DNA of 64,000 bases from an uncultured virus (IMG/VR IMGVR_UViG_3300047319_000709). Its lineage: Duplodnaviria > Heunggongvirae > Uroviricota > Caudoviricetes. The position numbers and the translations under genes were made by a program. The notes below the pieces were generated by a model. That model was not told where the DNA came from. It made no database searches and worked only from the letters and a program-made list of their open reading frames with translations. How positions within the stretch are numbered: the stretch's first letter is position 1; every line of letters begins with the position of its first letter. The stretch lies in the IMG/VR virus record IMGVR_UViG_3300047319_000709. The stretch is one strand, 5' to 3'. Below, one piece after another: positions 25,592 to 60,332 of this stretch.

Positions 25592-25945
25592 ATGACCTAC
25601 CCGAATGACCAAGGAAATCCCGCAGGGGCAATTCCCGTCTACATCACTTCTGGCTCTGGAAGTAGTGGCGGCGTAGCGGGCCCATCGAAAGCCGGTGTCA
25701 GTTCATCGAACAGCGTTGGCACGACCTCGGCACCGCTCATTGCGGCCGGCACATATAAAGGTTGGGTAACGGTGCAAAACACCCACGCCAGCCAGATCCT
25801 GTATGTCTCCTTTGGCGCGACCGCCACGACTTCGGATTTTGCCATCGCTCCAGGTGCTGCTCTGTCGCTGCCGTTCGGGCCGACGAATGCTCTAAATGGT
25901 ATCGGCTCGGCGGCCGGCACCACTTTCGCCGTTGTGGGGTATTGA
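25592..25945 (+). CDS. small beta-rich putative virion protein
   Basis: Gly/Ser/Thr-rich; TVQN....LYVSFG..AT pattern. Confidence 0.6.
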   Translation: MTYPNDQGNPAGAIPVYITSGSGSSGGVAGPSKAGVSSSNSVGTTSAPLIAAGTYKGWVTVQNTHASQILYVSFGATATTSDFAIAPGAALSLPFGPTNALNGIGSAAGTTFAVVGY

Positions 25946-26662
25946 ATGCGCAAGTTCGCACTCATTCTTTTGTTGCTGCCTGCGTTGGCACACGCGCAGT
26001 ACTTCGGCGGTTATCTGTCCAAGTCGGGCGGCACAATAGCCGGTACTCTGGGCGTGACAGGCAATGTCAACGTTCAGGGAAGCCTCAACTCCACGAACAA
26101 CACCCAGGCTGCGGGCCCGACCAACTCTGGCGTCGCTCTGGGCGGCGGACCTAACTTCGCTAGCGCGACCTTCTTCGACCAGACGCTGACGGCGAACAAT
26201 CGCACGTCCGACGCAGTATTTATCACCGGCTGTATGCGGTTCCGGTTCAAGAATGACGCCGGAGATACTGCTCTTCCCTGGATGTCGGCATGTGGAGGCC
26301 AAGCTGGCGGCATCACGGCTATCACGTCCAACAGCGGCACGGGAAGCTGGACTCATACCGGCAACATGGCTGTATCGGGCGCGCTGGTAGCAGGTAGCGG
26401 CACGCTGAACGTTTATTCAGCCAACGGCACTGCGGTTACAACGCCACACATAGTGACCGGCACCGTGACTCTCGCGTCCGGAACGGGAACAGCGACCTTT
26501 ACCGGCAACGCTATATTTAGCAACACGACTTCCTACGTGTGCACGGCGACGAACACATCTACGAATAGCGCGGTGCGTGCCACAAATGCTTCGGCATCGT
26601 CCGTGACGTTCAACTCCGGCGCCACTACTGACGTCATCGCGTATCAGTGTGTAGGAAATTGA
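25946..26662 (+). CDS. fibre-like protein with Sec signal peptide
   Basis: MRKFALILLLLPALAHA/Q; LSKSGGTIAG fibre motif; Thr/Gly/Asn-rich. Confidence 0.7.
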   Translation: MRKFALILLLLPALAHAQYFGGYLSKSGGTIAGTLGVTGNVNVQGSLNSTNNTQAAGPTNSGVALGGGPNFASATFFDQTLTANNRTSDAVFITGCMRFRFKNDAGDTALPWMSACGGQAGGITAITSNSGTGSWTHTGNMAVSGALVAGSGTLNVYSANGTAVTTPHIVTGTVTLASGTGTATFTGNAIFSNTTSYVCTATNTSTNSAVRATNASASSVTFNSGATTDVIAYQCVGN

Positions 26663-30820: not shown

Positions 30821-34162
<3,342 letters not shown>

Positions 34163-44518: not shown

Positions 44519-45474
44519 GTCGATACTACTCCCTGACGATCACGCCGGCAGGCAGCACGACGCCTTTCAGGACGTACACCTCACATCCGAACAACATTTA
44601 CGATCCAGCAGCGTTGAACATAGAGTACGACGCGCTGATAGGCCCGTATGGCACGCCGAGCGGCGCGTCCACTATTACGGTGTACGGCATCCCGCTTCAG
44701 GATCTGACGCAGGCACAACAATTCGCCGGCATGACGCTGGAGCTCAAGGCCGGCATGCGCGCTGGCTTGCCGCTGGTCAACCCGGCGCAAGCGGGCACGA
44801 TCTTGAAGGGAACGATCTTCCAGTCGTTCGGCAACTGGGAGGGCGTCGACCAAACGCTCGACTTCGTCGTGATTCCCGGCGTCTACACGGTTGAAAATCC
44901 GGGCAACATCCTGCTTGACTGGAGCGCCGGTATGTCGCTCGCCGATGCGCTGAAGCAGACGTTCTCGGTGGCGTACCCAGGCTTTCAGGTGTCAATGAAT
45001 ATCAGTGGCGATTTTGTGCAGAGCCACGATGAGCCGCATATTTGCGGGACGCTGGATCAACTAGCTCAACTCGTTGGAGACATCACCGAAGGCGTGTTTG
45101 ACAACCGGGTGACTATCGGGATTCAGGCGGGACAGATCGTCGTCTATGACAGTACGTACAAGCCAAACCCAATCCAGCTGAACTTCAATGATCTCGTGGG
45201 CCAACCGACGTGGATCGGCGTAAATACGATTCAGACGAAGATGGTAGCTCGAGCAGACTTGCAAATGGGCGCGATAGTCAAGATGCCAGAGGGTCTTCAA
45301 AACGCACCGGGATACATCAAGACAACCGCAGCGGCCTATCCATCAAGCATCAAATATCAAACAACGTTCCAGAATAATTTCATCATCAACGAATTGCGCC
45401 AGATCGGTAACTACCGGTCAGCGGACGCGGCACAATGGTCAACGATAGCGAACTGCATCGTCCTTCCGAGCTAA
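44515..45474 (+). CDS. baseplate hub protein
   Basis: Position; L.AG motif; LVGQPTW. Confidence 0.65.
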   Translation: MSRYYSLTITPAGSTTPFRTYTSHPNNIYDPAALNIEYDALIGPYGTPSGASTITVYGIPLQDLTQAQQFAGMTLELKAGMRAGLPLVNPAQAGTILKGTIFQSFGNWEGVDQTLDFVVIPGVYTVENPGNILLDWSAGMSLADALKQTFSVAYPGFQVSMNISGDFVQSHDEPHICGTLDQLAQLVGDITEGVFDNRVTIGIQAGQIVVYDSTYKPNPIQLNFNDLVGQPTWIGVNTIQTKMVARADLQMGAIVKMPEGLQNAPGYIKTTAAAYPSSIKYQTTFQNNFIINELRQIGNYRSADAAQWSTIANCIVLPS

Positions 45475-45477
45475 GCG

Positions 45478-46185
45478 ATGTCAGAGAACTACGCCAAACT
45501 GTGGGTACAGCGCAGCGCCAACCAGACCGCAATCAATCGCGCTCAACAGGCCATTGAGAATCTTGGCCGGGCATTACCTTGCCGCGTTGTTAAGGTGAGC
45601 GGATCGATCGTCACCGTGGCCTTTGAGGTCAATGCCGCCCCTTACACACTGCCAAATATCACCATTCCAAAGGCCGAGAGCCCGTGGATAAGGATGCCGA
45701 CACAGGTTGGTGACAAGGGCGTCACGATGCCCGCGGACGCGTACCTGGGTGGTGTCTCAGGGTTGGGTGGCGGAGTAGCGACTCTGACCAGGCCGGGCAA
45801 TTTGAGCGCCCTGGTGTTTGTTCCGATCAGCAACTCGGGATCGCCACCGATTGATCAAAACGCGGCGCAGGTTCAGGGCCCCAACGGCGCCATCATTCGC
45901 ACGACGGAAGGTACCACCTCCCAGATCGTGACGGACACGACCGGAACGACCGTAACCTTCGGCGACAGTACTGTGGTGGTGAACGCTACCGAAACCGCGT
46001 TGAGCTACGGTGCCACCACTTCTCTGGTGCTGAACGCCAGCGGTATTACCATGACCTTCGGGTCGAAAACTATCGTACTGAACGGCTCGGGACTCAGTAT
46101 CAACGGCGAGAGTTACGAGGACCACACGCACGGCTATTTCCCGGGCACCGGTTCGAAGGCGCAAACCGACCCACCCATTAACTAG
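45478..46185 (+). CDS. baseplate central spike (gpV-like)
   Basis: OB-fold N-terminus, beta-helix repeats, C-terminal HTH iron-binding motif. Confidence 0.8.
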   Translation: MSENYAKLWVQRSANQTAINRAQQAIENLGRALPCRVVKVSGSIVTVAFEVNAAPYTLPNITIPKAESPWIRMPTQVGDKGVTMPADAYLGGVSGLGGGVATLTRPGNLSALVFVPISNSGSPPIDQNAAQVQGPNGAIIRTTEGTTSQIVTDTTGTTVTFGDSTVVVNATETALSYGATTSLVLNASGITMTFGSKTIVLNGSGLSINGESYEDHTHGYFPGTGSKAQTDPPIN

Positions 46186-46517
46186 CGGCGCGTATATGAA
46201 CCCTTCAGCCCGTCGTACCGGTCCTGCCACATGCTGAACTTGTGCATGTAATCGATGGTGCCGTTGCTCCAATGCACCGTGATATAGCAATCGATCCGAT
46301 ACAGGCCGGGGTAATACTCGTAGGCCGGCGTTCCGGCTGCAGTTTCAATAGACTCGATTCGGGCAGCACTTGGTCCGAGGTCAAGAAGATAAGGGATGTT
46401 CGCCATCTCCATGTCGTGTGCGAGCGGAGCCTGGCAGTTTTGTGGGATGCCAGACGGGTCAACCGCATTGGCGTTTGTCGCCAACATAGCAAGCAGAATC
46501 GCGAATTGCCGCATCAT
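46182..46517 (-). CDS. secreted/periplasmic moron protein
   Basis: Signal peptide MMRQFAILLAMLATNANA; opposite strand. Confidence 0.65.
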   Translation of the reverse strand: MMRQFAILLAMLATNANAVDPSGIPQNCQAPLAHDMEMANIPYLLDLGPSAARIESIETAAGTPAYEYYPGLYRIDCYITVHWSNGTIDYMHKFSMWQDRYDGLKGSYTRR

Positions 46518-47161
46518 TCACTTTCCTTTTTAACTGCGCCGAAGTCGTCGGGATTGAACCTCGGGCATACGTCGCAGTGCCGCGCTGCGCCCTCCGCCTG
46601 GATCTGATCAGATATTGATGCGGGATGCCCGCGCTGAGGCCGGAACCACTGCAGCATATGCCGACAAGGGAATACGAAGACCCCATTTTCTGAGGCCGCT
46701 TCGTAGTGCCTGAAGTGCGGCGTTATATGGTCGAACGTCCGATGCGGTGCCAGCGGATTGAATGGGTCGTCCACCATCCTGAAGCAGTGCGCCCTGTGGT
46801 CTCGAGCAGCGCACGAATCGGCGAAACATTTCAATACCGCCTCGATCTCGAACGCGGGCTCCATTTCGCCGATGACCATACGCCCTTGCGCATAGAAATG
46901 AGTACCTCGCCAGCCTCGAACGTAGTGGATAAGGTCCATCGCCTGAGTGGCACCATCAAACGTCCTGGCGAATCCCGCAACATGAATCTTGAGGGTCTCA
47001 AGGTCTCGCTCTGCGAATAGCGTTGCGCGCCTGGCCACTTCCATGGCCCACGGAAATGCCTCCGATCGACTTCGCAGGAACAGAACGAGCACCAGATAGT
47101 CGCGCGACGTCCTCAACAGATTGTCGTGCGCAAAGAAACTTGGTGAGTGGGTATCTGGCAT
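46514..47161 (-). CDS. moron protein with Cys-rich C-terminus
   Basis: Opposite strand; HCF, FPC, CDVCP; start uncertain. Confidence 0.6.
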   Translation of the reverse strand: MPDTHSPSFFAHDNLLRTSRDYLVLVLFLRSRSEAFPWAMEVARRATLFAERDLETLKIHVAGFARTFDGATQAMDLIHYVRGWRGTHFYAQGRMVIGEMEPAFEIEAVLKCFADSCAARDHRAHCFRMVDDPFNPLAPHRTFDHITPHFRHYEAASENGVFVFPCRHMLQWFRPQRGHPASISDQIQAEGAARHCDVCPRFNPDDFGAVKKESE

Positions 47162-47185
47162 AGATAAATGGAAATGGTCAAGTAA

Positions 47186-47590
47186 ATGCGCACATATGGG
47201 CGAATCCTGAACGAGGACGGTTCGAAAACATGGGTTGTGGTCGAGACCGATGCGAACGGATACAACGACAACGTTTATCTGACTACTCTCGCGCAATGTC
47301 TGAAACTGAATCTTGGCGAGAGTCCGATCTACGCGAACTACGGTATCCCTCAATACCAGACGATCGTGACGCAGGTCTTGCCTGATTACTACGTTATGCA
47401 GACGCAGACGCAGTTCTCGCAGTACTTCGCGTCACTCACGATTAACCGGGTGCAGGGCTCGTCTCCGCCCGTCTATAACGTCAGTGCGGTGTGCCACAGC
47501 GGCGCAATCCTGACTCCGTATGTGGATTCATCGATCAACGCTCCGCAACTCGACAGCACTTTCATTCTCAATCAATCGGCCCTGGCATGA
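47186..47590 (+). CDS. baseplate wedge subunit (gp25-like)
   Basis: LGESP.Y..YGIP motif; position. Confidence 0.65.
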   Translation: MRTYGRILNEDGSKTWVVVETDANGYNDNVYLTTLAQCLKLNLGESPIYANYGIPQYQTIVTQVLPDYYVMQTQTQFSQYFASLTINRVQGSSPPVYNVSAVCHSGAILTPYVDSSINAPQLDSTFILNQSALA

Positions 47591-48951
47591 TTCGACGCAC
47601 TCTCTTTCTGCTCGCGTTTGTTTGTTCAACGGCCAACGCACAGTTTACGCCCGGTCAAATTCTGACGGCGTCTCAACTTAACGCCGCGTTAGCCGCAAAG
47701 ACGAGCAATTCAGCTGCGGCGATCACGGGCGGCTCGATTACGAATGCCACCATCAACGGTGGAACGATGTCGGGTACTGCCATAACCGGCGGGACAATCT
47801 CGGGGCTGACGTCACCGCTTCCCGTCGCATCGGGAGGCACCGGCGCCACCGCGTCGACCGGATCAGGAAGCGTGGTCCTGGCCACCGCTCCAACAATTGC
47901 AGGTCTGACCGTAACTGGAACGTTCACCGCTCCCGGTTTAATCTCCCCCGCTTCGCTGGCGTCACAAGCGGCGAATACGGTACTCGCGAACGTCACGGCA
48001 TCAAGCGCGTCTCCCACGGCGTTCGCGATGCCGAGTTGCTCGACGTCGACCAGTGCGTTGCAGTACACAAGCGGCACGGGATTTACCTGCTACGCCAATT
48101 CCGCCACGACGACCGGAACACTAGCGCAATTCGCATCCACCACCTCTGCACAACTGGCCGGCGTGTTGTCGGACGAAACAGGCAGCGGCGCCGCGGTGTT
48201 CGGTACGAACCCGGCAATCAGCGGGGCAACAATCACCGGATCGTCGTATGCGGGCAGTGTCGCCGCAACCACGCTGTCGGCAAGCAGTACTGTCAGCGGC
48301 ACTGGCTTCAGCACGTATCTCGCGTCGCCTCCAGCGATCGGCGGCACCGCGCCAGCCGCGGGCACATTCACCAATCTCTCATCGAGTGGAACGGTCAGCG
48401 GAACCGGATTTAGCGCATATCTTGCTTCTCCGCCCGCCATTGGCACAACCACTGCGGCAGCCGGCAAGTTCACCACCTTGCAAGCTACGTCCGCAATCAC
48501 GCCAGCGTATCCCGCGGGCGTCGTAGGCAACACAACTGGCAGCAACGTGACGGCCGGCAGTGTTGGCGAACTGATTTCCTCGAACGTCCTTCAAGCTTCG
48601 GCCGTAAGTTTCCCCAACCAGACATCGACCAACGTCACGTCGATCACTCTGACGCCGGGCGACTGGGACATCTGGGGGCAATTTATTACCAAGCCTAGCA
48701 GCGTGACCTCCATTGCCCTGATTTCCGCATGGCTTAGCACAACGTCCGCGACGATGCCAACGGATTCTGATCCGGCGAAACCGTGGTTCTTCATGTCGAC
48801 TGCCTTCACTGCCAGTCAGGGGACCGCCGTACAAACCGGCATGGGTCGGATCAATGTTTCAGCAACCACGACACTTTATCTGTCCGGCTCCGTGACGTTC
48901 TCCGGAGGCACGATGGCGGCGTACGGAAACATTCAGGCACGCCGCCGCTAA
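47587..48951 (+). CDS. tail-fibre-like protein with Sec signal peptide
   Basis: MIRRTLFLLAFVCSTANA/Q; ITGG and LPVASGGTG fibre motifs; C-terminal SITLTPGDWDI...ARR domain. Confidence 0.75.
   Translation: MIRRTLFLLAFVCSTANAQFTPGQILTASQLNAALAAKTSNSAAAITGGSITNATINGGTMSGTAITGGTISGLTSPLPVASGGTGATASTGSGSVVLATAPTIAGLTVTGTFTAPGLISPASLASQAANTVLANVTASSASPTAFAMPSCSTSTSALQYTSGTGFTCYANSATTTGTLAQFASTTSAQLAGVLSDETGSGAAVFGTNPAISGATITGSSYAGSVAATTLSASSTVSGTGFSTYLASPPAIGGTAPAAGTFTNLSSSGTVSGTGFSAYLASPPAIGTTTAAAGKFTTLQATSAITPAYPAGVVGNTTGSNVTAGSVGELISSNVLQASAVSFPNQTSTNVTSITLTPGDWDIWGQFITKPSSVTSIALISAWLSTTSATMPTDSDPAKPWFFMSTAFTASQGTAVQTGMGRINVSATTTLYLSGSVTFSGGTMAAYGNIQARRR
48271..48480 (+). repeat. 102-bp (34-aa) tandem duplication within the fibre gene
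   Basis: TVSGTGFS.YLASPPAIG.T..AAG.FT occurs twice, offset 102 nt. Confidence 0.8.
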
Positions 48952-49018
48952 GACCATGCATACCAAGCCGCTCGCCCTGCGACGGCAACTTCCATTGCTG
49001 AACTGACCACTACGCCGC

Positions 49019-50434
49019 ATGAGCACAACGTCTATTCCACTGATAATGACGACGGCAGGGCCGCAGGCGACTCCCGTGGCGACGCTGTACGACACCCTGA
49101 TCAATTATGTTGCCAATCAGGTTCCCGGCTACACGGCTAACCTTCCCGGCTCTCTGATCGACGATGTCGCGGGCACCGATACCGGCGCGCTCGTCGCGAT
49201 CGATCAGGCGCGAGTTGATGCGATCAACAGCGTCAGTCCATATGGTGCCAATGCTTTTGTGCTGGCCCAACTCGGCGCTCAATTCGGGATCGCTCCAGGA
49301 GTGGGCGCAAACGGCAGTGTGTATGTGCAGTTCGCTGGTCCCGCTGGATACGTGTTCCAGAAAGGCTTCGTCGTGGGTGACGGGACCAATCAGTACGCAC
49401 TTCAGGATGGTGGTGTCATCCAGGCCAACGGACTAAGCCCGCTCCTTTTTGCGGTAGCGACGACTAGCGGTAGCTTCGCTATTCCGGCCAACACCGTTAA
49501 TCAGTTGGTGACGTCGGTTCCAAGCGCTTATGCAGTCACGGTTACGAACCCGGAGGCCGGAACTGCTGCAACAACTACACAGAGCGTGCCGGACTATCGC
49601 GCGCAGGTGTTACAGGCAGGGTTGGTAGCAGCTACTGGAACGCCCGCTTACCTTAAGACTCTGCTTTACAAAATCACGGGCGTTCAACAGCAACTAGTTT
49701 CGATTAACGCAGTTTCAGGCGGTTGGCAGGTCATCTGCGGAGGCGGTGATGCCTACGCCGTTGCGAACGCAATTCTTCAGGGTGCCGGCGACATAGCACT
49801 GCTAAAGGGATCGCAATTGTCGATCACGACAATGACCGCAGCCAACCCGGTCGTCGTCACGACCAACCTGAATCATGGATACGTCGCGGGCGGCACGGTT
49901 ACAGTGGCGGGGGCTACGCCAAGCGCATACAACGGCACCTATACGATCGCCTCGGTCACGCCAACAACGATCACGACGACGACTAACGGCAGCGGATTTG
50001 GTGCATATGTCGGTGGTGCCACGCTCAGTCCGAATCCTCGAAATGTGACGGTGTCCCTGTTCCAGAATCCCGATACGTATTCGATAACCTTCGTCAATCC
50101 TCCGCAGCAAGTTGTGACAGTAGCGGTGACGTGGAATACGACTCTGCCCAACTTCACGGCAGGAACGTCGGTCAACCAGTTGGCAGCTCCAGCGCTCCAG
50201 TCATACATCAACTCGATCTACGTCGGGCAGCCGATCAACGAACTCGAGATGACGGCGGTGTTTCAGAGTGCGGTTTCTTCAGTTATCGCCGCGTCCAACA
50301 TAACCACATTGCAGTTTGCAGTGACCATCAACGGTGTTCCGGCGTCCCCCGCAGCCGGCACCAGCATTATTGCCGGAGATGTTGAGGGCTACTTCTCTGC
50401 GAGTGCAACTGCGATCACGGTAACTCAAGGATAA
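49019..50434 (+). CDS. baseplate J-like protein
   Basis: 471 aa; PGSL; YRAQVL; position. Confidence 0.75.
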   Translation: MSTTSIPLIMTTAGPQATPVATLYDTLINYVANQVPGYTANLPGSLIDDVAGTDTGALVAIDQARVDAINSVSPYGANAFVLAQLGAQFGIAPGVGANGSVYVQFAGPAGYVFQKGFVVGDGTNQYALQDGGVIQANGLSPLLFAVATTSGSFAIPANTVNQLVTSVPSAYAVTVTNPEAGTAATTTQSVPDYRAQVLQAGLVAATGTPAYLKTLLYKITGVQQQLVSINAVSGGWQVICGGGDAYAVANAILQGAGDIALLKGSQLSITTMTAANPVVVTTNLNHGYVAGGTVTVAGATPSAYNGTYTIASVTPTTITTTTNGSGFGAYVGGATLSPNPRNVTVSLFQNPDTYSITFVNPPQQVVTVAVTWNTTLPNFTAGTSVNQLAAPALQSYINSIYVGQPINELEMTAVFQSAVSSVIAASNITTLQFAVTINGVPASPAAGTSIIAGDVEGYFSASATAITVTQG

Positions 50435-50436
50435 CC

Positions 50437-51336
50437 ATGGGCAATATCGAATCATTCTCGACTTTGCCGCTTCAGAAAACGATCCCGAGCTACCTATACC
50501 TTCAATACAGCGATGACGAGAACCTTCAGGCTTTCGTCGATGCGTTCAACTCGATTTCGCAAGGATATGTCGACTGGTTCAACGACACACCGCTTGGCCT
50601 CTATACGTCGCCAAACATAACGGGCCCGCTGTTGGACTGGATAGGTAACGGTGTCTATGGAATTCCCCGCCCGGTTCTGTCGACGCAAACATCCACAACG
50701 ATAGCTGGATACAACACCGCCCCCTATAACACAGTCCCATACAACGGCCTCAGCCACTCATCGTCTGGAACCGCAGAGATCGCTTCGGACGACATCTACA
50801 AACGTGTGATGACGTGGAACCTGTATCGCGGTGACGGGCAGGTTTTCAATATGGGCTGGCTCAAGAACCGGGTCAACAGGTTCCTCAACGGCGCGAATGG
50901 ATCCGACTACACGGTACTGGACAATCCTCCATCGATAACCGTATCTGGGAACGTATTCACCATTACGTCGTTTGAGGATTCGAACTTTACGATCCTGCAG
51001 GAGTGCCTGAACAACGGTGTTCTAGCGTTTCCGTTTCAGTACACGTTCGCATTCGTCAATATCGGGTTCTTTAACGATGGCGGTGTTCTGTGGATGACTG
51101 CTCCGCTCAATTATCCGACTAGCCCCACAGGGTTAGCAGCGGGTTCCGTTTGGTACAACGGCGGCACCGTCTCTGTGATTCCGGGCATCACCCCCGATCC
51201 CCTGGCGCCGCCAGTCTATTTCGGAACACTTACCGCTTCGGGGCTGCTGGCCCTTGGCGGCGGAAATCTGCCTCTTATCAATCCGGGTTCAACCGGTCAA
51301 CTCTGGAACAACGGCGGCGTCATCTCGATCGCCTGA
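50437..51336 (+). CDS. baseplate protein (DUF2612-like) with C-terminal NGG repeats
   Basis: LLDWIG..YGIPR, DDIYKR motifs. Confidence 0.7.
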   Translation: MGNIESFSTLPLQKTIPSYLYLQYSDDENLQAFVDAFNSISQGYVDWFNDTPLGLYTSPNITGPLLDWIGNGVYGIPRPVLSTQTSTTIAGYNTAPYNTVPYNGLSHSSSGTAEIASDDIYKRVMTWNLYRGDGQVFNMGWLKNRVNRFLNGANGSDYTVLDNPPSITVSGNVFTITSFEDSNFTILQECLNNGVLAFPFQYTFAFVNIGFFNDGGVLWMTAPLNYPTSPTGLAAGSVWYNGGTVSVIPGITPDPLAPPVYFGTLTASGLLALGGGNLPLINPGSTGQLWNNGGVISIA

Positions 51337-51341
51337 CGACA

Positions 51342-52064
51342 ATGACAATTTTTACGTTCGCGAACAACGTCAACACGACGTTGGCAGGACCGGTCTCGTC
51401 CAGCGCCACCTCGATAACGCTTTCAAATACCGCGAACCTGCCGGCATCGATTCCTGCCGGCCAGGTACTGGTAATCACGCTGAATGACGTCGCTACGCGC
51501 CAGAACTACGAAGTGGTGTATGCGACCGCGAGGACCGGATCGACATTAACAGTATTGCGCGGTCAGGAAGGCACGGCAGCGCTTTCGTGGCTAACAGGAG
51601 ACTACGCCTACAGCCCTCCTACTGCGGGACAGCAGTCGTCCTTTGGACAACTTGCGGCGGCCAATACCTGGGCGGGGCCAAACACGTTCACTGATCCTGT
51701 GGCTGTAGCGGCTGCTTCCTCCGCTGGACAAGCGGTGAATCTTGGTCAGTTCTCTGCGGACACTACTGGAACAGGTCACCTTGTAATTCCGTGCTCCGTC
51801 GCGGGCGCTCTCGTTCCGATGGTCTTTCAGTGGGGGCAGGCTGTGACTAACGCCTCCGGGATTGCCACTCTGACGCTCGATTTGCCGTTTCCGAATGCAT
51901 TGCTGTCTGGAGTCGCAAACTACGTGAACAACGGCACAACGGTTACCAACAATCAAGCCTCTTTCTCCAATTTATCAACGAGATTGAACCTGGTGGCTGT
52001 AGTTGCGAACAACGGCTCTCCGGTCAACCTCGCTCAGGTCAACTTCATGGCGATCGGATATTAA
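51342..52064 (+). CDS. tail fibre/attachment protein (no signal peptide)
   Basis: FANN.TTLA, EVV..TAR.G.TLTV.RGQEGT; C-terminal FQWG...FPN...AIGY. Confidence 0.75.
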   Translation: MTIFTFANNVNTTLAGPVSSSATSITLSNTANLPASIPAGQVLVITLNDVATRQNYEVVYATARTGSTLTVLRGQEGTAALSWLTGDYAYSPPTAGQQSSFGQLAAANTWAGPNTFTDPVAVAAASSAGQAVNLGQFSADTTGTGHLVIPCSVAGALVPMVFQWGQAVTNASGIATLTLDLPFPNALLSGVANYVNNGTTVTNNQASFSNLSTRLNLVAVVANNGSPVNLAQVNFMAIGY

Positions 52065-52280
52065 ATGAGTCAGGTGTTCGGATTACCTCAGCCACTTACC
52101 GGTAGCGAGACGGTGACCATCAGGCAAACACAGAACGGGCAAACCGCCCTATGCACGATGCCTCTTTCTTCCCTTCTTACGGTCATCACCCTTACCGCTC
52201 TCGCTTCCGGCCTACCGACAACTCGTCCCTCAGCCCCTGGCGTCGTCTGGAACAACGGCGGCGTAGTTTCAATCTCCTGA
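52065..52280 (+). CDS. small tail-associated protein
   Basis: Ends LPTT.P...GVVWNNGGVVSIS. Confidence 0.65.
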   Translation: MSQVFGLPQPLTGSETVTIRQTQNGQTALCTMPLSSLLTVITLTALASGLPTTRPSAPGVVWNNGGVVSIS

Positions 52281-52290
52281 TTCGAAAACA

Positions 52291-54036
52291 ATGAAGAAAA
52301 TCATCATCGCGGCGCTGTTTGCGCCGCTGGCGGCGCTCGCCCAGACTTACCCTTCACCCACGTTCAACAGTATTACGCTTCAAAATCCGTTGACGCCGGC
52401 CAACGGTGGAACCGGCGTCGCGAACTCCGGGACGATCACGCTTGGAGGAAGCTTTTCGACCACTGGCGGTAACCCGCTTGTGCTCAATACGACAGCTCCC
52501 ACCAATATCACGTTGCCGACCAGCGGTACCCTTCTGAACAGTTCCAGTGGCGCTACCGCAGGAGCTAACAGTAACATTACCTCGCTTTCCGGCCTGACGA
52601 CGCCGCTGTCTGTCTCCCAAGGTGGAACGGGTTCGTCAACAGCGACTGGATCTGGTTCGGCAGTCCTGGCGACCAGTCCTACGCTAGTCACCCCCAACTT
52701 GGGTACGCCTTCCGCGGCTACACTGACGAACGCCACGGGACTTCCCGTGTCGACCGGCATATCCGGTCTTGGAACCGGCGTGGCGGCGGCGCTCGCCAAT
52801 GCAGTGACGGGCAGTGGTAGTCCCGTTCTGGCAACGTCCCCCACGCTTTCCAATGCGATTGTCGGGACGCAATCTGCCGGCAACAACAGTACGCTCGCGG
52901 CGAGCACGGGGTTTGTCGCTGCTCACGCTCCTTGCCCTTCCATCCTCGACTACGGCGGCAATAACGGCGGAGTCGTATCGAACAATGCCGCATGGACGAA
53001 TGCGGTGGCCGCGCAATCGACGGGCAACGTGTGTGTATTTTTTCCGCAAGGCACGTATTACTTCGCATCAAGCATCGGATATACGTTCCCGAACACCAAC
53101 CCCAATTCGATAACCATTAAAGGCGTCGCGGCTGACTCGTCGATTCTGAAGTTTAACGCCACGTCATTCGGGATATCCATCGCAGCAAACGGTCCGTTTT
53201 CCGGTATCCACATCAGAGATCTATCAGTCACCACAACCGCATCAACGCCGACCGGTGTTGCAATCAACCTGGCGCAGCAGCAGAGCACCATCGCCAATCC
53301 GGCCAACTCCGCTCTCTCGGATATCACAAATGTGACGACCCGCGGCGCTGACGGCTACGTTGTTACTGACGGGTGGTCGAATGGTGTAAATGTCGCGAGC
53401 GTATCGAACATCAACTTCACGAACCTCACTACGATCGGACCCTCAACCGCATCGTACGGAGTCATCCTGAACGGCACGTCGACCGCTTTGGGCGTCGTGT
53501 ACAACTTTCAGGGCTGTACCTTCAACTATCTTGGCATTGGCCTTTACTACGCGGCCTATGTGCAAGGAGTCACTGTCAACCAGAGCAACTTCACTGGCGA
53601 CACCAACGGGATCGTCGTCCCGACTGGTCAGGCAGGCCTCGACCAGTTGAGCGTGACGAATAGTCAGTTCAACACCTACAACAACGGCATCCTTACCCAG
53701 TCGAACGTTGGCGTCATCATGATCGCCAACAATTTCTTTCTCGTCCAGAACAACAGCAACGGGATTTCGTTGCAGAACTACAGCGCATTCAGCATCATCG
53801 GTAACACGTTCAACCCTGCCGTTGCATCTCCGACTGGTACTCGCGGCATATACATCGACACCTGGGCGTCAAGCGCCGGTGTGATTACGGCTAATGCGAT
53901 TCAGGAAATGACAACGGGCATCCTCCTCGGGTCGGGCTCCAAGTCTGTCAATGTGCAATCGAATGTCTACTTCGCTAACACGACCAACATTTCGAACAGC
54001 GGTACAGGCAATACGCTCGGCGGCGGCTCTCAATAA
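52291..54036 (+). CDS. tailspike-like beta-helix (pectate lyase superfamily) protein with Sec signal peptide
   Basis: MKKIIIAALFAPLAALA/Q; GGTG fibre repeats; ILDYGG..G, VFFPQGTY; Asn-rich beta-helix. Confidence 0.8.
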   Translation: MKKIIIAALFAPLAALAQTYPSPTFNSITLQNPLTPANGGTGVANSGTITLGGSFSTTGGNPLVLNTTAPTNITLPTSGTLLNSSSGATAGANSNITSLSGLTTPLSVSQGGTGSSTATGSGSAVLATSPTLVTPNLGTPSAATLTNATGLPVSTGISGLGTGVAAALANAVTGSGSPVLATSPTLSNAIVGTQSAGNNSTLAASTGFVAAHAPCPSILDYGGNNGGVVSNNAAWTNAVAAQSTGNVCVFFPQGTYYFASSIGYTFPNTNPNSITIKGVAADSSILKFNATSFGISIAANGPFSGIHIRDLSVTTTASTPTGVAINLAQQQSTIANPANSALSDITNVTTRGADGYVVTDGWSNGVNVASVSNINFTNLTTIGPSTASYGVILNGTSTALGVVYNFQGCTFNYLGIGLYYAAYVQGVTVNQSNFTGDTNGIVVPTGQAGLDQLSVTNSQFNTYNNGILTQSNVGVIMIANNFFLVQNNSNGISLQNYSAFSIIGNTFNPAVASPTGTRGIYIDTWASSAGVITANAIQEMTTGILLGSGSKSVNVQSNVYFANTTNISNSGTGNTLGGGSQ

Positions 54037-54037
54037 G

Positions 54038-55246
54038 TCACGGCTGCCCCGTCGTGACTCCAGTACCTGGATGAACGTCTGATGCCCGGTTGAGCCGCGT
54101 AATCGCGGCTTTTCCGATTGAGATACCGACCCGTTCAATCGCCGAGAACGTTGCAACCGACATTGCGACGGTGGTGACATACATGAAGGCGCAGGTGATC
54201 CAGAATGCAGAATTGTTTCCGAGAGCATAGGAAACAATAGCGGGACGGGTCATCACCATCGTAATGACGAGGCTGTGAAGCAGATACACGCTGTAGCTCA
54301 TGTTACCCAAGCGATGCGCGCCCCGCGTTTGAAGCACTCCGAAGATTGACGTTCCGGAAACTATCATCATGAAAAATCCACCGAGCAGCAACGTGCCAAC
54401 CGGCGAGTAGATGATGTCTGGGACACGAAACGCGGCGACGATCAAGGCGCAAGCGATGATGGACCGTATTGCTCCATCTCCTTTGAGGGCCGGTCGCGTG
54501 CGCATGATTGATGATGCGAGCATCCCGCACAGAAATTCGGCAAGAAACGACCTGAACGGCTCCGCGATCAGACCGTCGACTGCCAGAACAAGAAACAGTG
54601 CTGATGCCGTCAATGCGACCGGACGTCCGAGGCGAGCAAATATAGACAATATCGGTAAGCTTGCGTAGAACAGCCACTCATAACGCAAGCTCCACACAGG
54701 TCCCACTACAGACATCGCAGCATCCATGTTCAAAAAAGGCGTTGGATTCTTGACGACCCCGAGTGCGAGCCATTGGCCAATTTGAAAGACAGTTTGCTTG
54801 AACGGTTGGTCGATCTCAAAGTGGACGCGGCACAAAACCACTGCGAAGTACGACGCAATCAGGAAAAGATACAGTGGATAGATCCTGAAGAAACGGTTGA
54901 CATATAACTCCGCCCAGTTCACGGAATCGGCTTTAGCAAGAAGGCGACTCCAGAACAGGTAGCCGGTAATCATGAAGAATATAGCTACGGCTGCGGGCCC
55001 AAGAGACATATAAAAATGGGAAGGTGCAGCCACTCCAAACTTCGCGCCATATCCATGCAGCACGAAATGATGGAATGCAACGGCTGTTGCAAGGATCCCG
55101 CGCAGGCCGTCGATAGAATCTAGTCGGTGCGCAAATACAGTCGGACTGACGTCCAGAAACCGGAGGAATCGCCCGGAAAGCGCGACCACAACCAGGCCGA
55201 CAATGGCCATCATGGGCCATACCGAAAAAATGGATATATCAGGCAC
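54038..55246 (-). CDS. acyltransferase-3 family (OafA-like) O-acetyltransferase
   Basis: IDGLRG, FF.ITGY, RFFRIYP, WSL.YEW.FY, LG..SYSVYL.H motifs. Confidence 0.9.
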   Translation of the reverse strand: MPDISIFSVWPMMAIVGLVVVALSGRFLRFLDVSPTVFAHRLDSIDGLRGILATAVAFHHFVLHGYGAKFGVAAPSHFYMSLGPAAVAIFFMITGYLFWSRLLAKADSVNWAELYVNRFFRIYPLYLFLIASYFAVVLCRVHFEIDQPFKQTVFQIGQWLALGVVKNPTPFLNMDAAMSVVGPVWSLRYEWLFYASLPILSIFARLGRPVALTASALFLVLAVDGLIAEPFRSFLAEFLCGMLASSIMRTRPALKGDGAIRSIIACALIVAAFRVPDIIYSPVGTLLLGGFFMMIVSGTSIFGVLQTRGAHRLGNMSYSVYLLHSLVITMVMTRPAIVSYALGNNSAFWITCAFMYVTTVAMSVATFSAIERVGISIGKAAITRLNRASDVHPGTGVTTGQP

Positions 55247-55299
55247 CGCGTTCGCCTTCTTTGGGTCTAAAAAATCGCAGCCTTAACGAATTCTGGGAT

Positions 55300-56670
55300 C
55301 TACAAATAGTATTTCCAGATCAGCGTCGACACAGTCATCGACATTGAGAATGCGAGAAAAGCGCCGCAAACGATCATGGTCACCGATGATCGCCGCTTCA
55401 TAGGTTCTGCATCACTTAGGGCGTAAGCAGCGAGGATGGCCGGAGCGGTGAAATAACGACCTTGCACACCGATGATAAGTTGGGCGTGAAGATCCGTCCA
55501 AGTGACAAGCAGCGCGACGAGGGTAAGCATTACCGCGGCCGCGGCGACCATTAACGGCACCGTCCGGGCAAGCGCCCCCACCCCGCGGGAGCAGGAGATC
55601 ACCAATGCAATTAGCAAGCCAACACCCGCGAATTTGTAGGTAACGGGCGGCATGGGCCGATCGAGCCAACCAAGGACGCCGACGAACTGACGCCAGTACG
55701 AATCGATGACTGCCGGGTTCGACAGCGTTCGCCAAATGACTTCTATCAGTTCGACGGGATGATGCATGTAGAACGAGACGGCCTGACCGGTCGTAATCGA
55801 GCGCGGCCACCGCAGATCGACGGTGTGTGATGCTCCATACATCACCCACCCCACAGCGAGCAACGCCGCGATGACAGAAGCAGCCAGCGCACGGCGGTCT
55901 TTTCGGACGAAGAAAACCACTGGTGCCAGTATCAGGATCGCCATCAGTTGCGGCCGACTCGTGGCAATCATGAACGGCGCAACGATCAGCAGCAAGGACC
56001 ACAGAAGCGGAAACGGCTGCTCTCGATCCAAGCCACGGCGGAATAGGCTTGCTGCTAACACAGTCCAGGCGAACGACATACCGTCAGCCGACGCGCTCGA
56101 TAACTGGAACATCGTCATTGGCAGCGCTAGGAGGCAAATTACCAACGCATTCGGCGGGAAGACCGTGAATGCGTAAGCAATGATAACGGCAACAGCAATC
56201 AAAGTTGTCGCGCGTGCAAGCCGGTATGATGCGCCCACACCCAAGTGCAATGATTCGCCAATCCGCAGTCCTACAGCTTGCGGGAGGTAGCCTAGCGGGA
56301 AATATGGCGCAGCACCGGCCATGTCGACGTAACTCCGAGCGCCGCTCCATTTTATGGCTGCACCGGCCTCTGCCGTTTTCGCATCAAACCGGGCATTAGG
56401 CTTGGTAGAAAGCGCCTGAAAGTTCAGCACCTGGTACTGTTGCAACGCGTCGTCGAAATAACCTCCGGTCGAGCGCCCCGGCTCTGTTACGGTTTGCGAT
56501 AGCACAGAAAGCAGATATGCGCGCTTGATATGGTCGTTTTCATCTGGCGACTGCATCGGCGGTATGATTGCCGATAGAAAACTGCCAATGATGACGATGG
56601 AAAAAAACGCAATTGTCCATTGACGCAGCGAATTCATTGCCTTTATTCCTGAATTGTTCGGGCGCATCAT
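55300..56670 (-). CDS. DUF2142-like polytopic membrane protein (probable GT-C glycosyltransferase)
   Basis: PP.QSPDE..H, YLPQA.G, GVLGWLD, GVQGRYF; about 11 TM; alternative start 56637. Confidence 0.75.
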   Translation of the reverse strand: MMRPNNSGIKAMNSLRQWTIAFFSIVIIGSFLSAIIPPMQSPDENDHIKRAYLLSVLSQTVTEPGRSTGGYFDDALQQYQVLNFQALSTKPNARFDAKTAEAGAAIKWSGARSYVDMAGAAPYFPLGYLPQAVGLRIGESLHLGVGASYRLARATTLIAVAVIIAYAFTVFPPNALVICLLALPMTMFQLSSASADGMSFAWTVLAASLFRRGLDREQPFPLLWSLLLIVAPFMIATSRPQLMAILILAPVVFFVRKDRRALAASVIAALLAVGWVMYGASHTVDLRWPRSITTGQAVSFYMHHPVELIEVIWRTLSNPAVIDSYWRQFVGVLGWLDRPMPPVTYKFAGVGLLIALVISCSRGVGALARTVPLMVAAAAVMLTLVALLVTWTDLHAQLIIGVQGRYFTAPAILAAYALSDAEPMKRRSSVTMIVCGAFLAFSMSMTVSTLIWKYYL

Positions 56671-56738
56671 AGCGCAATCGAGAGACGGATTCGTCCGAAT
56701 CCGTCAGCTCTTGCGATTTGCTTGCCTAGCGCAGGCGT

Positions 56739-57674
56739 CTATCCGCCGAACTCAGCCTTAACGATAGGGCCGATGACTGCCAACTCCTGCTGAGCCTTGA
56801 GCGTCTGCAATGTCTCGTCCGGCAATATGCATGTCGCATCCATGTGCGAACCCCAATCCGCCAGAGCAGAAATCGCAGCGTGGTTATCGACCACCGGCAC
56901 ATCGTAGGTCACTCCCGCCGCCTTGATCGCCGCGGCGTAACTTGCCGTGAACGGATGATCGCTGTCGCACGTTGGCGACGGAGTCTCAAGAACTGGTCTT
57001 CTGCCGGCAGCCCGCACGGTCTGGATGGCTTGTGCAAGGTAGCCCGAGAAATCGGAAACTGTTTCGCCGCCGTACTGCTCGTTCAGGCCGTAACTAATCA
57101 CGACGATCGTAGATTGCGTCGATGCCAATCGTTGAGCAAACGGAGCGCCGCCGCCATCCATGCCGTCGAGCAGGTTCATCAGACTCGCTGACGTCCCGCC
57201 GGTCGCATGGTTGGCGACCGTTATGCCGGTATCGTTGAACTCCCTCTGCAGCGAATCTTGCAGGCTGGCCGAAGCTGGTTTAACGATGACCGGAATGCCG
57301 AAGCCATACGATGCAAGACCCATCGCCGCGTCGTCGCCATAGACATCGATATGGATGATCGGCGTAGATGTTGGCCACGACGCGGGCGCCCCAGATGCTG
57401 CCGAGGCTGGCAAAGCAGTCGACGGAATGATCGGCTTTGCAACTGCGGTGTCAGCCGGTTTCTCTCCGCCGCCACAGGCAGCCAGGCAAACGCTCAGGGC
57501 TGCGACGAATCCTGCTCGCCAGCGGGAACCTGCTTCACGTGTGCGCCGAACGTCTCCATGAACTGCAGCACACGGTTGAACTCTTCTTCCGTCAATGCCA
57601 TGTGAGCCGCTCCCACGAACGCAACGTGTGGTCCCATCTTTCGAGGTTCCTTGCCGCCCGTATATTTGCGCCAT
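56739..57674 (-). CDS. SGNH/GDSL-fold lipoprotein, probably catalytically inactive
   Basis: LAAC lipobox; GDD, NHATGG, YGLNE blocks; start uncertain (57674 or 57833). Confidence 0.65.
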   Translation of the reverse strand: MAQIYGRQGTSKDGTTRCVRGSGSHGIDGRRVQPCAAVHGDVRRTREAGSRWRAGFVAALSVCLAACGGGEKPADTAVAKPIIPSTALPASAASGAPASWPTSTPIIHIDVYGDDAAMGLASYGFGIPVIVKPASASLQDSLQREFNDTGITVANHATGGTSASLMNLLDGMDGGGAPFAQRLASTQSTIVVISYGLNEQYGGETVSDFSGYLAQAIQTVRAAGRRPVLETPSPTCDSDHPFTASYAAAIKAAGVTYDVPVVDNHAAISALADWGSHMDATCILPDETLQTLKAQQELAVIGPIVKAEFGG

Positions 57675-57787
57675 TGCTGATCGCTTCCCAGCCAGAACGC
57701 CTCGGCCATCTCCTTCCCGGTCGCATTGCGACGGCGCTTGAGCTCCGCCAGGTCTTCTGTCGATGGTTCGTTGAATTGGATTGGCAT
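57494..57787 (-). CDS. small XRE-like HTH regulator
   Basis: TGKEMAE.F......WRKYTGG HTH pattern. Confidence 0.7.
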   Translation of the reverse strand: MPIQFNEPSTEDLAELKRRRNATGKEMAEAFWLGSDQQWRKYTGGKEPRKMGPHVAFVGAAHMALTEEEFNRVLQFMETFGAHVKQVPAGEQDSSQP

Positions 57788-57886
57788 GTCTTCTGGGTGC
57801 GCGGTCAAGGCGCGTGCGAAAGCTGATTTTCATTGGATCGTCCTATCGGGTTGTTCGGGTCGCGCGGTGCGCTACCTCTGGAACGG

Positions 57887-57916
57887 ATATTAGCCCCCTA
57901 GGGTTTGTCCCGTCAA
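57887..57916 (-). promoter_or_regulatory. moron promoter with palindromic operator
   Basis: TTGACG-18-TAATAT with a CCCTAGGG palindrome in the spacer. Confidence 0.55.
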
Positions 57917-57971
57917 GTGTTTCAGTGTGAATTTTTTTGCGGCCAAGACCGCGCTAACAACAAGACCAACT

Positions 57972-57998
57972 GCCTCCCACGCGGAGGCTTTTTTATTT
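57972..57998 (+). terminator. rho-independent terminator
   Basis: GCCTCC..GGAGGC-TTTTT. Confidence 0.6.
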
Positions 57999-58010
57999 CC
58001 GGGAATGTGC

Positions 58011-58340
58011 ATGGACTACACCGCCGTTGTTGAGGTTGGGTGCGCAGGATTCGCTGCGGTTAGCGGTGTATTCGCGTGGCTCTGGCAGCGCTCAGAGACC
58101 GCGCGAGACAAGGTAATTCAAGAGCAAGGCGAGGCGATCAAGGAAGTATCAAAAGCCCTTGAAGGACACCGCCTGTACGTCGCTGAGCACTACGTCACGC
58201 AGACGGAACTGACCAAGGCCGTGGGCAGCCTGGAGCGCTCTATCGAACGTCTCATCGAGGCCGTCAACCTCAACTCGAAAGAAACACGGGACGGCTTCGC
58301 TGAAATGCATAGAAAGATCGATACGAAGGCAGACAAATGA
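58011..58340 (+). CDS. holin-like single-TM protein
   Basis: N-terminal TM plus coiled coil; coupled to the endolysin gene. Confidence 0.6.
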   Translation: MDYTAVVEVGCAGFAAVSGVFAWLWQRSETARDKVIQEQGEAIKEVSKALEGHRLYVAEHYVTQTELTKAVGSLERSIERLIEAVNLNSKETRDGFAEMHRKIDTKADK

Positions 58341-58789
58341 ACCTCGCCCTTCTCGAGGCCGAACTGCGCCGCGACGAGGGCGTCAGGTACATGCCGTATC
58401 TGGACACCGCAAAGCCGCCTAAGCGCACCGTAGGAGTAGGCCACAACATGGACGTCTCGCCGCTGCCTGCCGACTGGAGATTCCCCCTCTCGGATGCGCA
58501 GGTCAATCAGATTCTGGCGCGCGACATCGAGACCACTCTAGCGAAGCTCGACAAGGCTATGACCTGGTGGCGGTCGCTGGACGAAGTTCGCCAACGCGTT
58601 GTCGCAAACATGGCGTTCAACTTGGGAATCGGCGGCCTGCTCGGTTTTAAGAACACGCTCGCGGCCATGCAACGCGGCTCGTATGCGGTCGCTGCAGCAG
58701 GGATGCTTAGTTCCAAGTGGGCCGGTCAAGTCGGCGCACGCGCCAAGCGTCTCGCCCAGGCAATGGAGACGGGCGCTATGCCCTCCTAA
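58337..58789 (+). CDS. endolysin, T4-lysozyme-like (GH24)
   Basis: DEG.R..PYLDT....TVGVGH; NMAFNLG; SKWA.QVG.RA. Confidence 0.92.
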   Translation: MNLALLEAELRRDEGVRYMPYLDTAKPPKRTVGVGHNMDVSPLPADWRFPLSDAQVNQILARDIETTLAKLDKAMTWWRSLDEVRQRVVANMAFNLGIGGLLGFKNTLAAMQRGSYAVAAAGMLSSKWAGQVGARAKRLAQAMETGAMPS

Positions 58790-59385: not shown

Positions 59386-59597
59386 ACCTCAGCAACATAT
59401 CGCCAGTAACGCAAAAGCTGATCGTCGGTGGCGTTCTGTTTGCGGCCTGGTCGTATCTGGTCTACACGGGGAAGGTCCCGGCAACAGATTACGTAGAGAA
59501 CATCAAGATCGGGCTTGGCGGCCTTGGGCTTTACCACGTGGTGACGAACTCGACGGCGAAGAAAGCCGACGATTCCTCGGTACCGCCCGCAGCATGA
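59382..59597 (+). CDS. small two-TM membrane protein (holin/antiholin candidate)
   Basis: Two hydrophobic segments; located in the lysis region. Confidence 0.55.
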   Translation: MNLSNISPVTQKLIVGGVLFAAWSYLVYTGKVPATDYVENIKIGLGGLGLYHVVTNSTAKKADDSSVPPAA

Positions 59598-59899
59598 AAG
59601 CCGCTCTGCTGGCGCTATGTCTGACGGGATGCGCCGGCCAAGCCGCCTATTCGGTCAAGCCGTTCTATGAGCCCAGCTTGCAACGCATGGTCTGTTGTGA
59701 AGCCGTTGCGCTGAACTCGAAGGACATTGCCGTCCTCTCGTTCGATCTGACGACCTCGGCTGATGGCGTCGTGACGGTCCACTTCAACGAGACCGGCGTA
59801 GGCGCTACGGCCCCCGTCACCGCCCAAGGCGCAGTCGTTTCCAACGTAGCAAACGCTGCGGGCCAAGCTGCCGCGGCCATCGTCAAACTCACTCCCTAG
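59594..59899 (+). CDS. lipoprotein
   Basis: MKAALLALCLTGC lipobox. Confidence 0.7.
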   Translation: MKAALLALCLTGCAGQAAYSVKPFYEPSLQRMVCCEAVALNSKDIAVLSFDLTTSADGVVTVHFNETGVGATAPVTAQGAVVSNVANAAGQAAAAIVKLTP

Positions 59900-59909
59900 G
59901 ATCACCGAA

Positions 59910-60332
59910 ATGAAGAAATTAATGCTGCTCGCGGCAGGCCTTGTCGCGCTCGTCTCTGGCTGCGCCACCACTGGCACCGTTCAGACTCCCGCTCAAATTG
60001 CGTCGCAGGTATGTCCCCCGACTCAGACCGCAATCACGTCTCTGCAAGCCGTCGTTGGTCTCAGTGACGATGCCAAGGCCAAGCTCGCCGACGCCGCGCC
60101 GATTGTGGCTGCCGTATGCTCTGCTGGCTCGAGCGTCAACGTCGCCGATCTGAAGTCGCTCGGTGCAACTGCATTGCCGGCCGTCATGGCTGTGGTCAAC
60201 GCCTCACCGCTTTCGGACCAGGACAAGACGAAGATTGGCATCGACCTGACCGTTGCGCAGATCGTGTTGTCGAGCGTGCTGGCTGCCCTTCCCGCTGCGG
60301 CGGTTCCTGCGTCGGCTGCATCGGGTGTGTGA
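59910..60332 (+). CDS. lipoprotein (spanin candidate)
   Basis: VSGC lipobox; hydrophobic C-terminus. Confidence 0.65.
   Translation: MKKLMLLAAGLVALVSGCATTGTVQTPAQIASQVCPPTQTAITSLQAVVGLSDDAKAKLADAAPIVAAVCSAGSSVNVADLKSLGATALPAVMAVVNASPLSDQDKTKIGIDLTVAQIVLSSVLAALPAAAVPASAASGV

Follow-up and report, generated by a model that had tools for sequence, protein, structure and literature searches.

Why would a tailed phage place export signals on its tail fibres? The question is raised by a 64,000-nt stretch of DNA from an uncultured virus (IMG/VR record IMGVR_UViG_3300047319_000709; hereafter the window), in which an initial annotation, made from the letters alone, had noticed signal peptides at the start of two tail genes and of a third gene elsewhere. 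We name each gene by its start coordinate in the window; the three are fibre gene 47587, tailspike gene 52291 and fibre/spike gene 25946. They sit in a temperate, contractile-tailed soil phage of Burkholderiales type. Most of this phage lies in the window, including terminase, portal, major head protein, sheath, baseplate hub and wedge (Pfam and PHROG), and a CI-like repressor indicates that it is temperate. Near relatives of its baseplate gene 47186 occur in Paraburkholderia and Caballeronia genomes (three of four loci), and the sequencing runs that best match the window are rhizosphere metagenomes. Our analysis makes it probable that the three proteins are expressed late, exported by the general secretory (Sec) pathway, cut by signal peptidase I (SPase I), folded into disulfide-bonded trimers in the periplasm and docked at lysis onto hooks carried by the virion.

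The signal peptides are present as had been claimed. They are 18, 17 and 17 residues long in 47587 (47587..47640, plus strand), 52291 (52291..52341, plus strand) and 25946, and each has Ala at −3 and −1 and Gln directly after the predicted cut, the A-x-A/Gln arrangement that the initial annotation reported for all three. We scored leaders with a heuristic of our own rather than SignalP (net charge of +2 over the first six residues and an 8-residue hydrophobicity mean of ≥3.0). Among the 30 late genes listed between 25592 and 54036, only these three pass, and each shows the basic n-region, hydrophobic h-region and small −3/−1 residues of a Sec/SPase I signal. Mis-called starts were rejected as the source of the leaders because the starts are boxed in by neighbouring stops: that of 47587 overlaps the stop of 47186 (ATGA), that of 25946 abuts the stop of 25592 directly and that of 52291 lies 10 nt past the stop of 52065. 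A sequencing artefact was also rejected, as each of the 30 bins of 45000-58000 is covered by two independent DNA runs (X3 and X4), for which no indels are listed.

The leaders are also conserved in homologues, which the initial annotation had proposed as a check. Among the best 120 of 1901 homologues of 47587, 98 passed the heuristic, as did 58 among the best 120 of 4913 homologues of 52291, where the remainder were mostly matches to the shaft repeat only. At the DNA level in fetched loci, the leader is present in 48 of 50 distinct genes with the mature N-terminus of 47587 (module 1) and in 58 of 59 with that of 52291 (module 2). In a few rows of these counts the cut and the module are separated by additional residues, and the pattern behind the module-1 count missed two more leaderless genes, L113 and L122 (L labels denote the viral or prophage loci compared, and P labels protein homologues). 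Position −1 is Ala or Gly in 45/48 module-1 leaders and 58/58 module-2 leaders, −3 is Ala in 42/48 and 49/58, respectively, and +1 is Gln in all 58 module-2 leaders; such strictness points to selection for cleavage. These features are conserved while the leader sequence drifts: mean pairwise identity is 0.31 (47587 class) and 0.43 (52291 class) for leaders versus 0.81 and 0.75 over mature residues 1-14, the latter values being inflated because copies were picked by that motif. We found no conserved alternative start that would bypass the leader. An in-frame ATG between −6 and +1 of the cut occurs in 1/48 fibre leaders and 11/58 spike leaders, and in neither 47587 nor 52291. Leaderless forms begin 0-5 residues ahead of the module, which is where the cut falls in leader-bearing forms. 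We regard the three leaders as a real, selected feature. Separately, a further leader-bearing, Ser/Thr-rich gene lies in the head/neck region of a Caballeronia prophage (L036:207-683).

These observations bear on the possibility that the leader is not the route to the periplasm for the working copies, either because it is uncleaved or slowly cut and acts as a membrane tether, or because a non-exported fraction docks in the cytoplasm. Tailed particles do assemble in the cytoplasm, leaderless versions with the same module are taken to dock there, and the internal ATG codons of 11 spike leaders would suit such a fraction. However, signal peptidase cleavage sites face the periplasm, and the strict residues around the cut, the single internal ATG among 48 fibre-class leaders, the start of leaderless forms at the cut position and the occurrence of cysteine pairs only together with leaders (below) make this explanation quite unlikely.

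The proteins behind the leaders resemble the fibres and spikes of virions. After module 1, 47587 (47683..48951, plus strand) consists of a Ser/Thr/Gly-rich shaft, with the pair Cys151/Cys168, and a C-terminal jelly-roll tip (~48571-48948). A monomer model has this beta-sandwich/jelly-roll tip at pLDDT >90 for mature residues 311-435 and an N-terminal helix at residues 10-21. The family profile matches PDB 8VBX chain R, tail fibre gp47 (E 1.3e-15), which we take to be that of Pectobacterium phage PhiM1; together with fibre matches in BFVD and phrog_11393, this identifies a shaft and distal domain homologous to virion fibres. A Foldseek search of the PDB with 47587 returned generic jelly-rolls only (best E 6.9e-5). 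PhiM1 gp47 is a podovirus fibre held by an adaptor; it shares the C-terminal tip and shaft repeat with 47587, and the match excludes the N-terminal module. It is described as forming six trimeric fibres per virion (PMC11440229). The exported tailspike 52291 (52342..54036, plus strand) comprises module 2, a shaft and, from ~52940, a right-handed parallel beta-helix that is modelled confidently as a monomer, as expected of a tailspike, and it contains Cys215/Cys248. Its Foldseek matches include AlgE4 and the tailspikes of Sf6, CBA120 (TSP3) and Dettilon, with 9-16% identity to solved enzymes, and fold likeness suggests that it may cleave or bind polysaccharides. The third protein, 25946 (25946..26662, plus strand; four Cys), is encoded upstream of the terminase genes, belongs to tail fibre family phrog_32740 and has a C-terminal domain common to Bcep1 gp51 and BgManors32 gp48. 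The initial annotation had stressed a shaft segment shared by 47587 and 52291; it is present, but it is a generic fibre repeat, found also in the leaderless virion fibre 8VBX_R and many leaderless homologues, and we rejected it as a special feature.

Canonical fibres and tailspikes are leaderless, fold in the cytoplasm and carry their anchor at the translated N-terminus. The beta-helix fold of 52291 is shared with the tailspikes of Sf6, HK620 and CBA120 TSP3, and the P22 tailspike also has this fold. Tailspikes of these types fold in the cytoplasm and include the particle anchor in their own chain, and those of P22 attach to finished particles as the last step. Unlike in Sf6, HK620 and CBA120, anchor and spike are separate genes here (52065 and 52291), and the spike has a leader. 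The exported proteins thus work like, but are not, canonical members of these classes.

Paired cysteines accompany the leaders. In an alignment of 99 rows hand-chosen from the best 120 matches to 47587 (A1; shaft-only matches mostly omitted), Cys151/Cys168 are found in 88/89 leader-bearing rows, in three rows with a start called within the leader, and in 0/7 leaderless rows. In a 49-row alignment of the 52291 family (A2), Cys215/Cys248 are found in 44/46 leader-bearing rows and one with a cut leader, and are absent from the leaderless P0159 and P0180, two rows that are well aligned in this region, as well as from P0132 and P0155. Among leader-bearing homologues of 25946 the cysteine count is even in 26/26 scored, and in the 47587 match list it is even in 68/95. 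Such pairing would fit folding in an oxidising compartment. The export and periplasmic folding proposed by the initial annotation are thus supported, at the level of sequence, by leader conservation and by cysteine pairs confined to leader-bearing copies.

How might an exported fibre reach a particle? The initial annotation saw no recognisable attachment N-terminus in either tail gene. No library-named attachment domain is present, but the mature N-termini are strongly conserved modules that also start leaderless fibres and resemble attachment modules. Module 1 (F..GQ.LTA..LN and then a helix; 47641..47682, plus strand), defined by invariant columns and the model, begins mature 47587. Directly upstream is the small baseplate protein 47186 (47186..47590, plus strand; phrog_7986), whose position suggests a gp25/W-like protein. 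Its homologues come in a short form of 115 aa, followed directly by the wedge gene, and a long form of 134 aa, followed by a leader-bearing fibre; the window protein has the corresponding 19-aa C-terminal extension. This extension ends in a motif, L[DN]..F.L..S.L, that we call hook 1 (~47549-47587). The long form accounts for 10 of 45 distinct homologues, and a leader-bearing fibre is directly next in 9/10 long and 0/35 short forms. Hook 1 and fibre are both present in 10 of the 45, both absent in 33 and discordant in 2 (Fisher p 3.7e-8, a value that ignores the kinship of the loci).

As a forward test, we searched viral contigs with the fibre N-terminus alone, which gave 64 loci, 63 of them new, with 45 distinct fibres. 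Hook 1 lies at the very end of a neighbouring protein in 38/45 distinct fibre loci, and five more have one-residue variants (L092, L095, L096, L104 and L105); the L121 stretch begins downstream of the expected 47186 site, and L137 has only an internal variant, in the wedge gene. The ends of antisense open reading frames (ORFs) gave 0/13,692. The carriers fall into nine scaffold clusters without a BLASTP link, which include wedge subunits (phrog_203, phrog_120, phrog_587 and phrog_8212) and virion protein phrog_349. The same pair occurs on different scaffolds in cultured Bcep1, Bcep781 and BgManors32, and leaderless fibres with module 1 stand beside hook 1 in L062, L113, L120 and L122. Profile searches of PDB sequences with module 1, hook 1 and hook 2 gave nothing meaningful (matches to adenovirus hexon and NPC1L1 were at chance level) and revealed no solved structure homologous to any of the three.

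A second pair goes with the tailspike. Module 2 (Q.YPSPTF, 52342-52365) begins mature 52291, and hook 2 (LP...P...G.LWN.GG.IS) ends 50437, 52065 and some short exported proteins. The second wedge-type protein 50437 (50437..51336, plus strand; phrog_8212) has a C-terminal extension with two copies (~51136-51177 and ~51262-51330), and 12/14 of its cultured-phage matches cover only residues up to ~205. A search with the N-terminus of 52291 gave 45 loci, 34 of them distinct with module 2 by pattern, and hook 2 is present in 33/34; L156 has divergent hooks 2, L181 has a variant module 2 with hooks and L186 matched by its shaft only. Antisense ORF ends gave 0/17,564. Of 52 distinct module-1 loci, 7 have module 2 together with hook 2 and 45 have neither; conversely, 39 module-2 loci have both module 1 and hook 1 in 8 cases, neither in 29, the fibre only in one and a weak antisense match in one. 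By these patterns, the two pairs are separate from each other. A leaderless module 2 stands beside hook 2 in L073. Since both modules also open leaderless fibres and spikes whose neighbours carry the matching hooks, the pairs resemble normal particle-attachment devices that have gained a leader. In L008, L009, L013 and L025, additional exported proteins themselves end in hook 2, and a further exported spike comes next, an arrangement that would suit a branched particle appendage.

The 71-aa cytoplasmic adaptor 52065 (52065..52280, plus strand) has an N-terminal anchor (aa 2-42, by alignment) and a C-terminal hook 2 (~52212-52277). In P0303 this anchor forms one chain with a leaderless spike of pectate-lyase type (hhalign probability 97.4), and we therefore read 52065 and 52291 as a split tailspike. 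Kinship of the anchor with eight hand-picked leaderless fibre N-termini was not supported (hhalign probability 0.5), and P0303 provides the only direct support. A PDB sequence search with 52065 found nothing meaningful, and the ESM Atlas returned unnamed viral clusters, with a Phage_tail_C cluster (0.87) as no more than a lead. Although it lacks a leader, the adaptor contains a single invariant Cys, at position 30, which is replaced in P0303. In L187:6428-6931, hook 2 ends a protein weakly like head decoration family phrog_3018 (E 1.7e-4), and an exported module-2 gene, possibly a head fibre, follows. For 25946, the neighbour 25592 (25592..25945, plus strand), a small leaderless protein directly upstream, is the likely particle partner: its homologue directly precedes that of 25946 in 9/11 loci shown, L197 being cut upstream and L202 having another gene there.

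Together, these data suggest the following route. The three proteins would be accessory receptor-binding fibres and spikes, produced late, together with the virion genes; after Sec export and SPase I cleavage they would be oxidised in the periplasm to disulfide-bonded trimers. Cleavage would expose the short N-terminal module, which would bind the cognate C-terminal hook on a particle protein built in the cytoplasm: 47587 the hook on 47186, 52291 those on 52065 and/or 50437, and 25946 probably 25592. Lysis would break the inner membrane and bring the exported fibres to the finished particle, and the tailspike would be a split protein with its anchor inside and its enzymatic or binding part outside. 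Leaders, folds, cysteine pairs and hook/module co-occurrence are what we observe; export, cleavage, disulfides, trimers, binding and timing we infer from them. The benefit of export could, speculatively, be disulfide stability, or keeping a polysaccharide-cutting protein off cytoplasmic precursors.

The initial annotation left open whether the proteins join the virion or act free. They might mainly act free after lysis, stripping or masking O-antigen or capsule on debris and neighbours and thereby keeping progeny from being trapped, with the hooks as relics or of minor importance. The leaders and cysteines fit this equally, exported receptor blockers such as T5 Llp are known, the leaderless fibre 51342 is still present and the polysaccharide-acting fold of 52291 lies beside an O-antigen-type modification cassette. 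Against it, hooks are gained and lost together with the exported gene on nine scaffolds, which makes relic status unlikely, and exported proteins with their own terminal hook 2 precede another exported spike. We favour joining the virion, since each mature N-terminus is accompanied by a cognate hook on a particle protein; a purely free role is unlikely, and free and bound roles can coexist. It is very improbable that the genes are lysogenic-conversion morons, expressed from the prophage for adhesin-like alteration of the host surface and unrelated to virions. The phage is temperate, and exported morons beside tail genes are known (lambda Lom and Bor), but the genes are co-oriented and start-stop coupled within the late operon rather than forming an independent one, the same arrangement is found in the virulent phages Bcep1 and Bcep781, and Pfam revealed no membrane anchor or autotransporter domain. 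A consensus scan for promoters and terminators in the region stayed at chance level and gives only a weak argument, no promoter-like site being found on the plus strand of 45000-58500.

Several points weigh against docking of exported fibres on virions. Export, cleavage and virion presence are all read from sequence, with leaders called by our own heuristic, and the requirement that the hook pattern stand at the C-terminus was set after a first look at the fished loci. The hook 1 loci are related rather than independent, with three label changes on the 47186 tree, where a single origin of the hook is possible. L044 has hook 1 and no fibre in the available stretch (the contig ends), L051 and L121/L166 have a fibre and no terminal hook 1 in view, and L054 has hook 2 with no partner gene seen. 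The third exported class (BcepC6B gp19 and PBR31 gp35) has no hook 1 match. The ATG codons in 11/58 spike leaders lie ≤6 codons from the cut, although the window genes lack them. The seven leaderless A1 rows may be without that shaft segment altogether, and 52291 has an odd number of cysteines (3). Finally, the phage retains an ordinary leaderless fibre, 51342, so the exported fibres may be dispensable.

Cultured phages contain the same elements. In the Burkholderia phages of the Naesvirus group, Bcep781 gp49, Bcep43 gp48, Bcep1 gp51 and BcepNY3 gp51 likewise have a leader followed by module 1, and in Bcep1 and Bcep781 the upstream gene likewise ends in hook 1, on another scaffold (gp52 and gp50; phrog_349 by a Bcep43-sized IMG/VR copy); their fibres have a different C-terminal head. 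RefSeq notes on Bcep1 gp51 and Bcep781 gp49 read 'possible tail fiber; possible signal peptide domain' and give neither mechanism nor test. Cultured leader-bearing fibres or spikes annotated as hypothetical, tail or structural proteins are Burkholderia phage BgManors32 gp48 and gp51, Shewanella phage vB_Sb_QDWS gp23, BcepC6B gp19 and Xanthomonas phage PBR31 gp35; QDWS has module 2 and hook 2. In the part of the PBR31 report available, a signal peptide is mentioned just for gp40 (PMC10975493). The third exported class in BcepC6B and PBR31 (L002:20959-22032 and L079:5650-6459) has the mature start ATL.P.QLLNP and follows a leaderless spike. The annotated start of QDWS gp23 lies 269 codons downstream of the leader-bearing start (L001:14004-16073; OK094664), and OP650936 has match scores identical to OK094664 under another host name. 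Starts called inside or after the leader, in QDWS gp23, P0014, P0028 and P0061, are thus flagged as mis-annotations.

Phage proteins known to use host Sec export include filamentous phage coat proteins, which assemble at the membrane without lysis, lambda Lom and Bor, T5 Llp and spanins; morons and spanins are not known to join a tailed particle. An extracytoplasmic docking step is not expected for tailed phages. In the literature searched, we found neither exported tail fibres nor these hooks described; the search reached few subscription papers, no supplements and not the Bcep781/Bcep1 genome paper (which may discuss gp49). The accessible parts of PMC5567305, PMC9022590, PMC9658991, PMC3426561, PMC13366799, PMC10975493 and PMC13412088 do not describe an exported-fibre route, and the dsbA hits in PMC13412088 are read there, as far as that text goes, as receptor effects. 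The folds are known and the signal peptide is annotated in RefSeq; the assembly route is probably undescribed. If it is correct, tailed-phage assembly would include a maturation step outside the cytoplasm, the infectivity of progeny would depend on the Sec, signal peptidase and Dsb proteins of the host, and the way in which phages obtain disulfide-stabilised receptor-binding proteins would be explained. We lean towards a broader view, in which many tailed phages complete their assembly outside the cytoplasm: fibres and spikes would be secreted, cut and disulfide-locked in the periplasm, and then attached at lysis by hook/module pairs. There would be at least two such pairs, orthogonal and portable, suited to grafting onto nearly every particle protein and to chaining into branched appendages. 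The two pairs predict the holder of each appendage, which is directly testable in cultured Bcep781, Bcep1 and BgManors32, and the hooks are candidate assembly tags of 13-22 residues.

Other genes of the window were also noted. A leaderless J-like baseplate wedge (49019..50434, plus strand; phrog_6, E 2.4e-22) separates 47587 from 50437, and 51342 (51342..52064, plus strand) is the leaderless short tail fibre (Pfam Gp53-like_C). Directly after the tailspike, an antisense cassette (54038..57833, minus strand; Pfam) encodes an acyltransferase-3 (54038-55246), a DUF2142 membrane protein (55300-56670) and a GDSL hydrolase (56739-57833); it is likely to modify surface polysaccharide and varies among relatives. 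Tight coupling of this cassette to spike type was rejected, the link being loose. A 111-aa antisense gene between spike and baseplate genes (46182-46517, minus strand) has a leader-like start and Cys residues and no Pfam or PHROG match. A DUF2213 head protease/scaffold gene (31652-34162, plus strand) is fused to ADP-ribosyltransferase and Nudix hydrolase domains, possibly as head-packaged cargo. The lysis genes are a lysozyme and two small lipoprotein-type genes, which follow a holin-like gene (59594-60332, plus strand), have no family match and are candidate spanin-type proteins. A lone ATP-dependent DNA ligase domain gene lies near the phage end (61372-62052, minus strand). Relatives at 90-99% identity occur as contigs in RNA runs X9 and X24, contigs that give no measure of expression.

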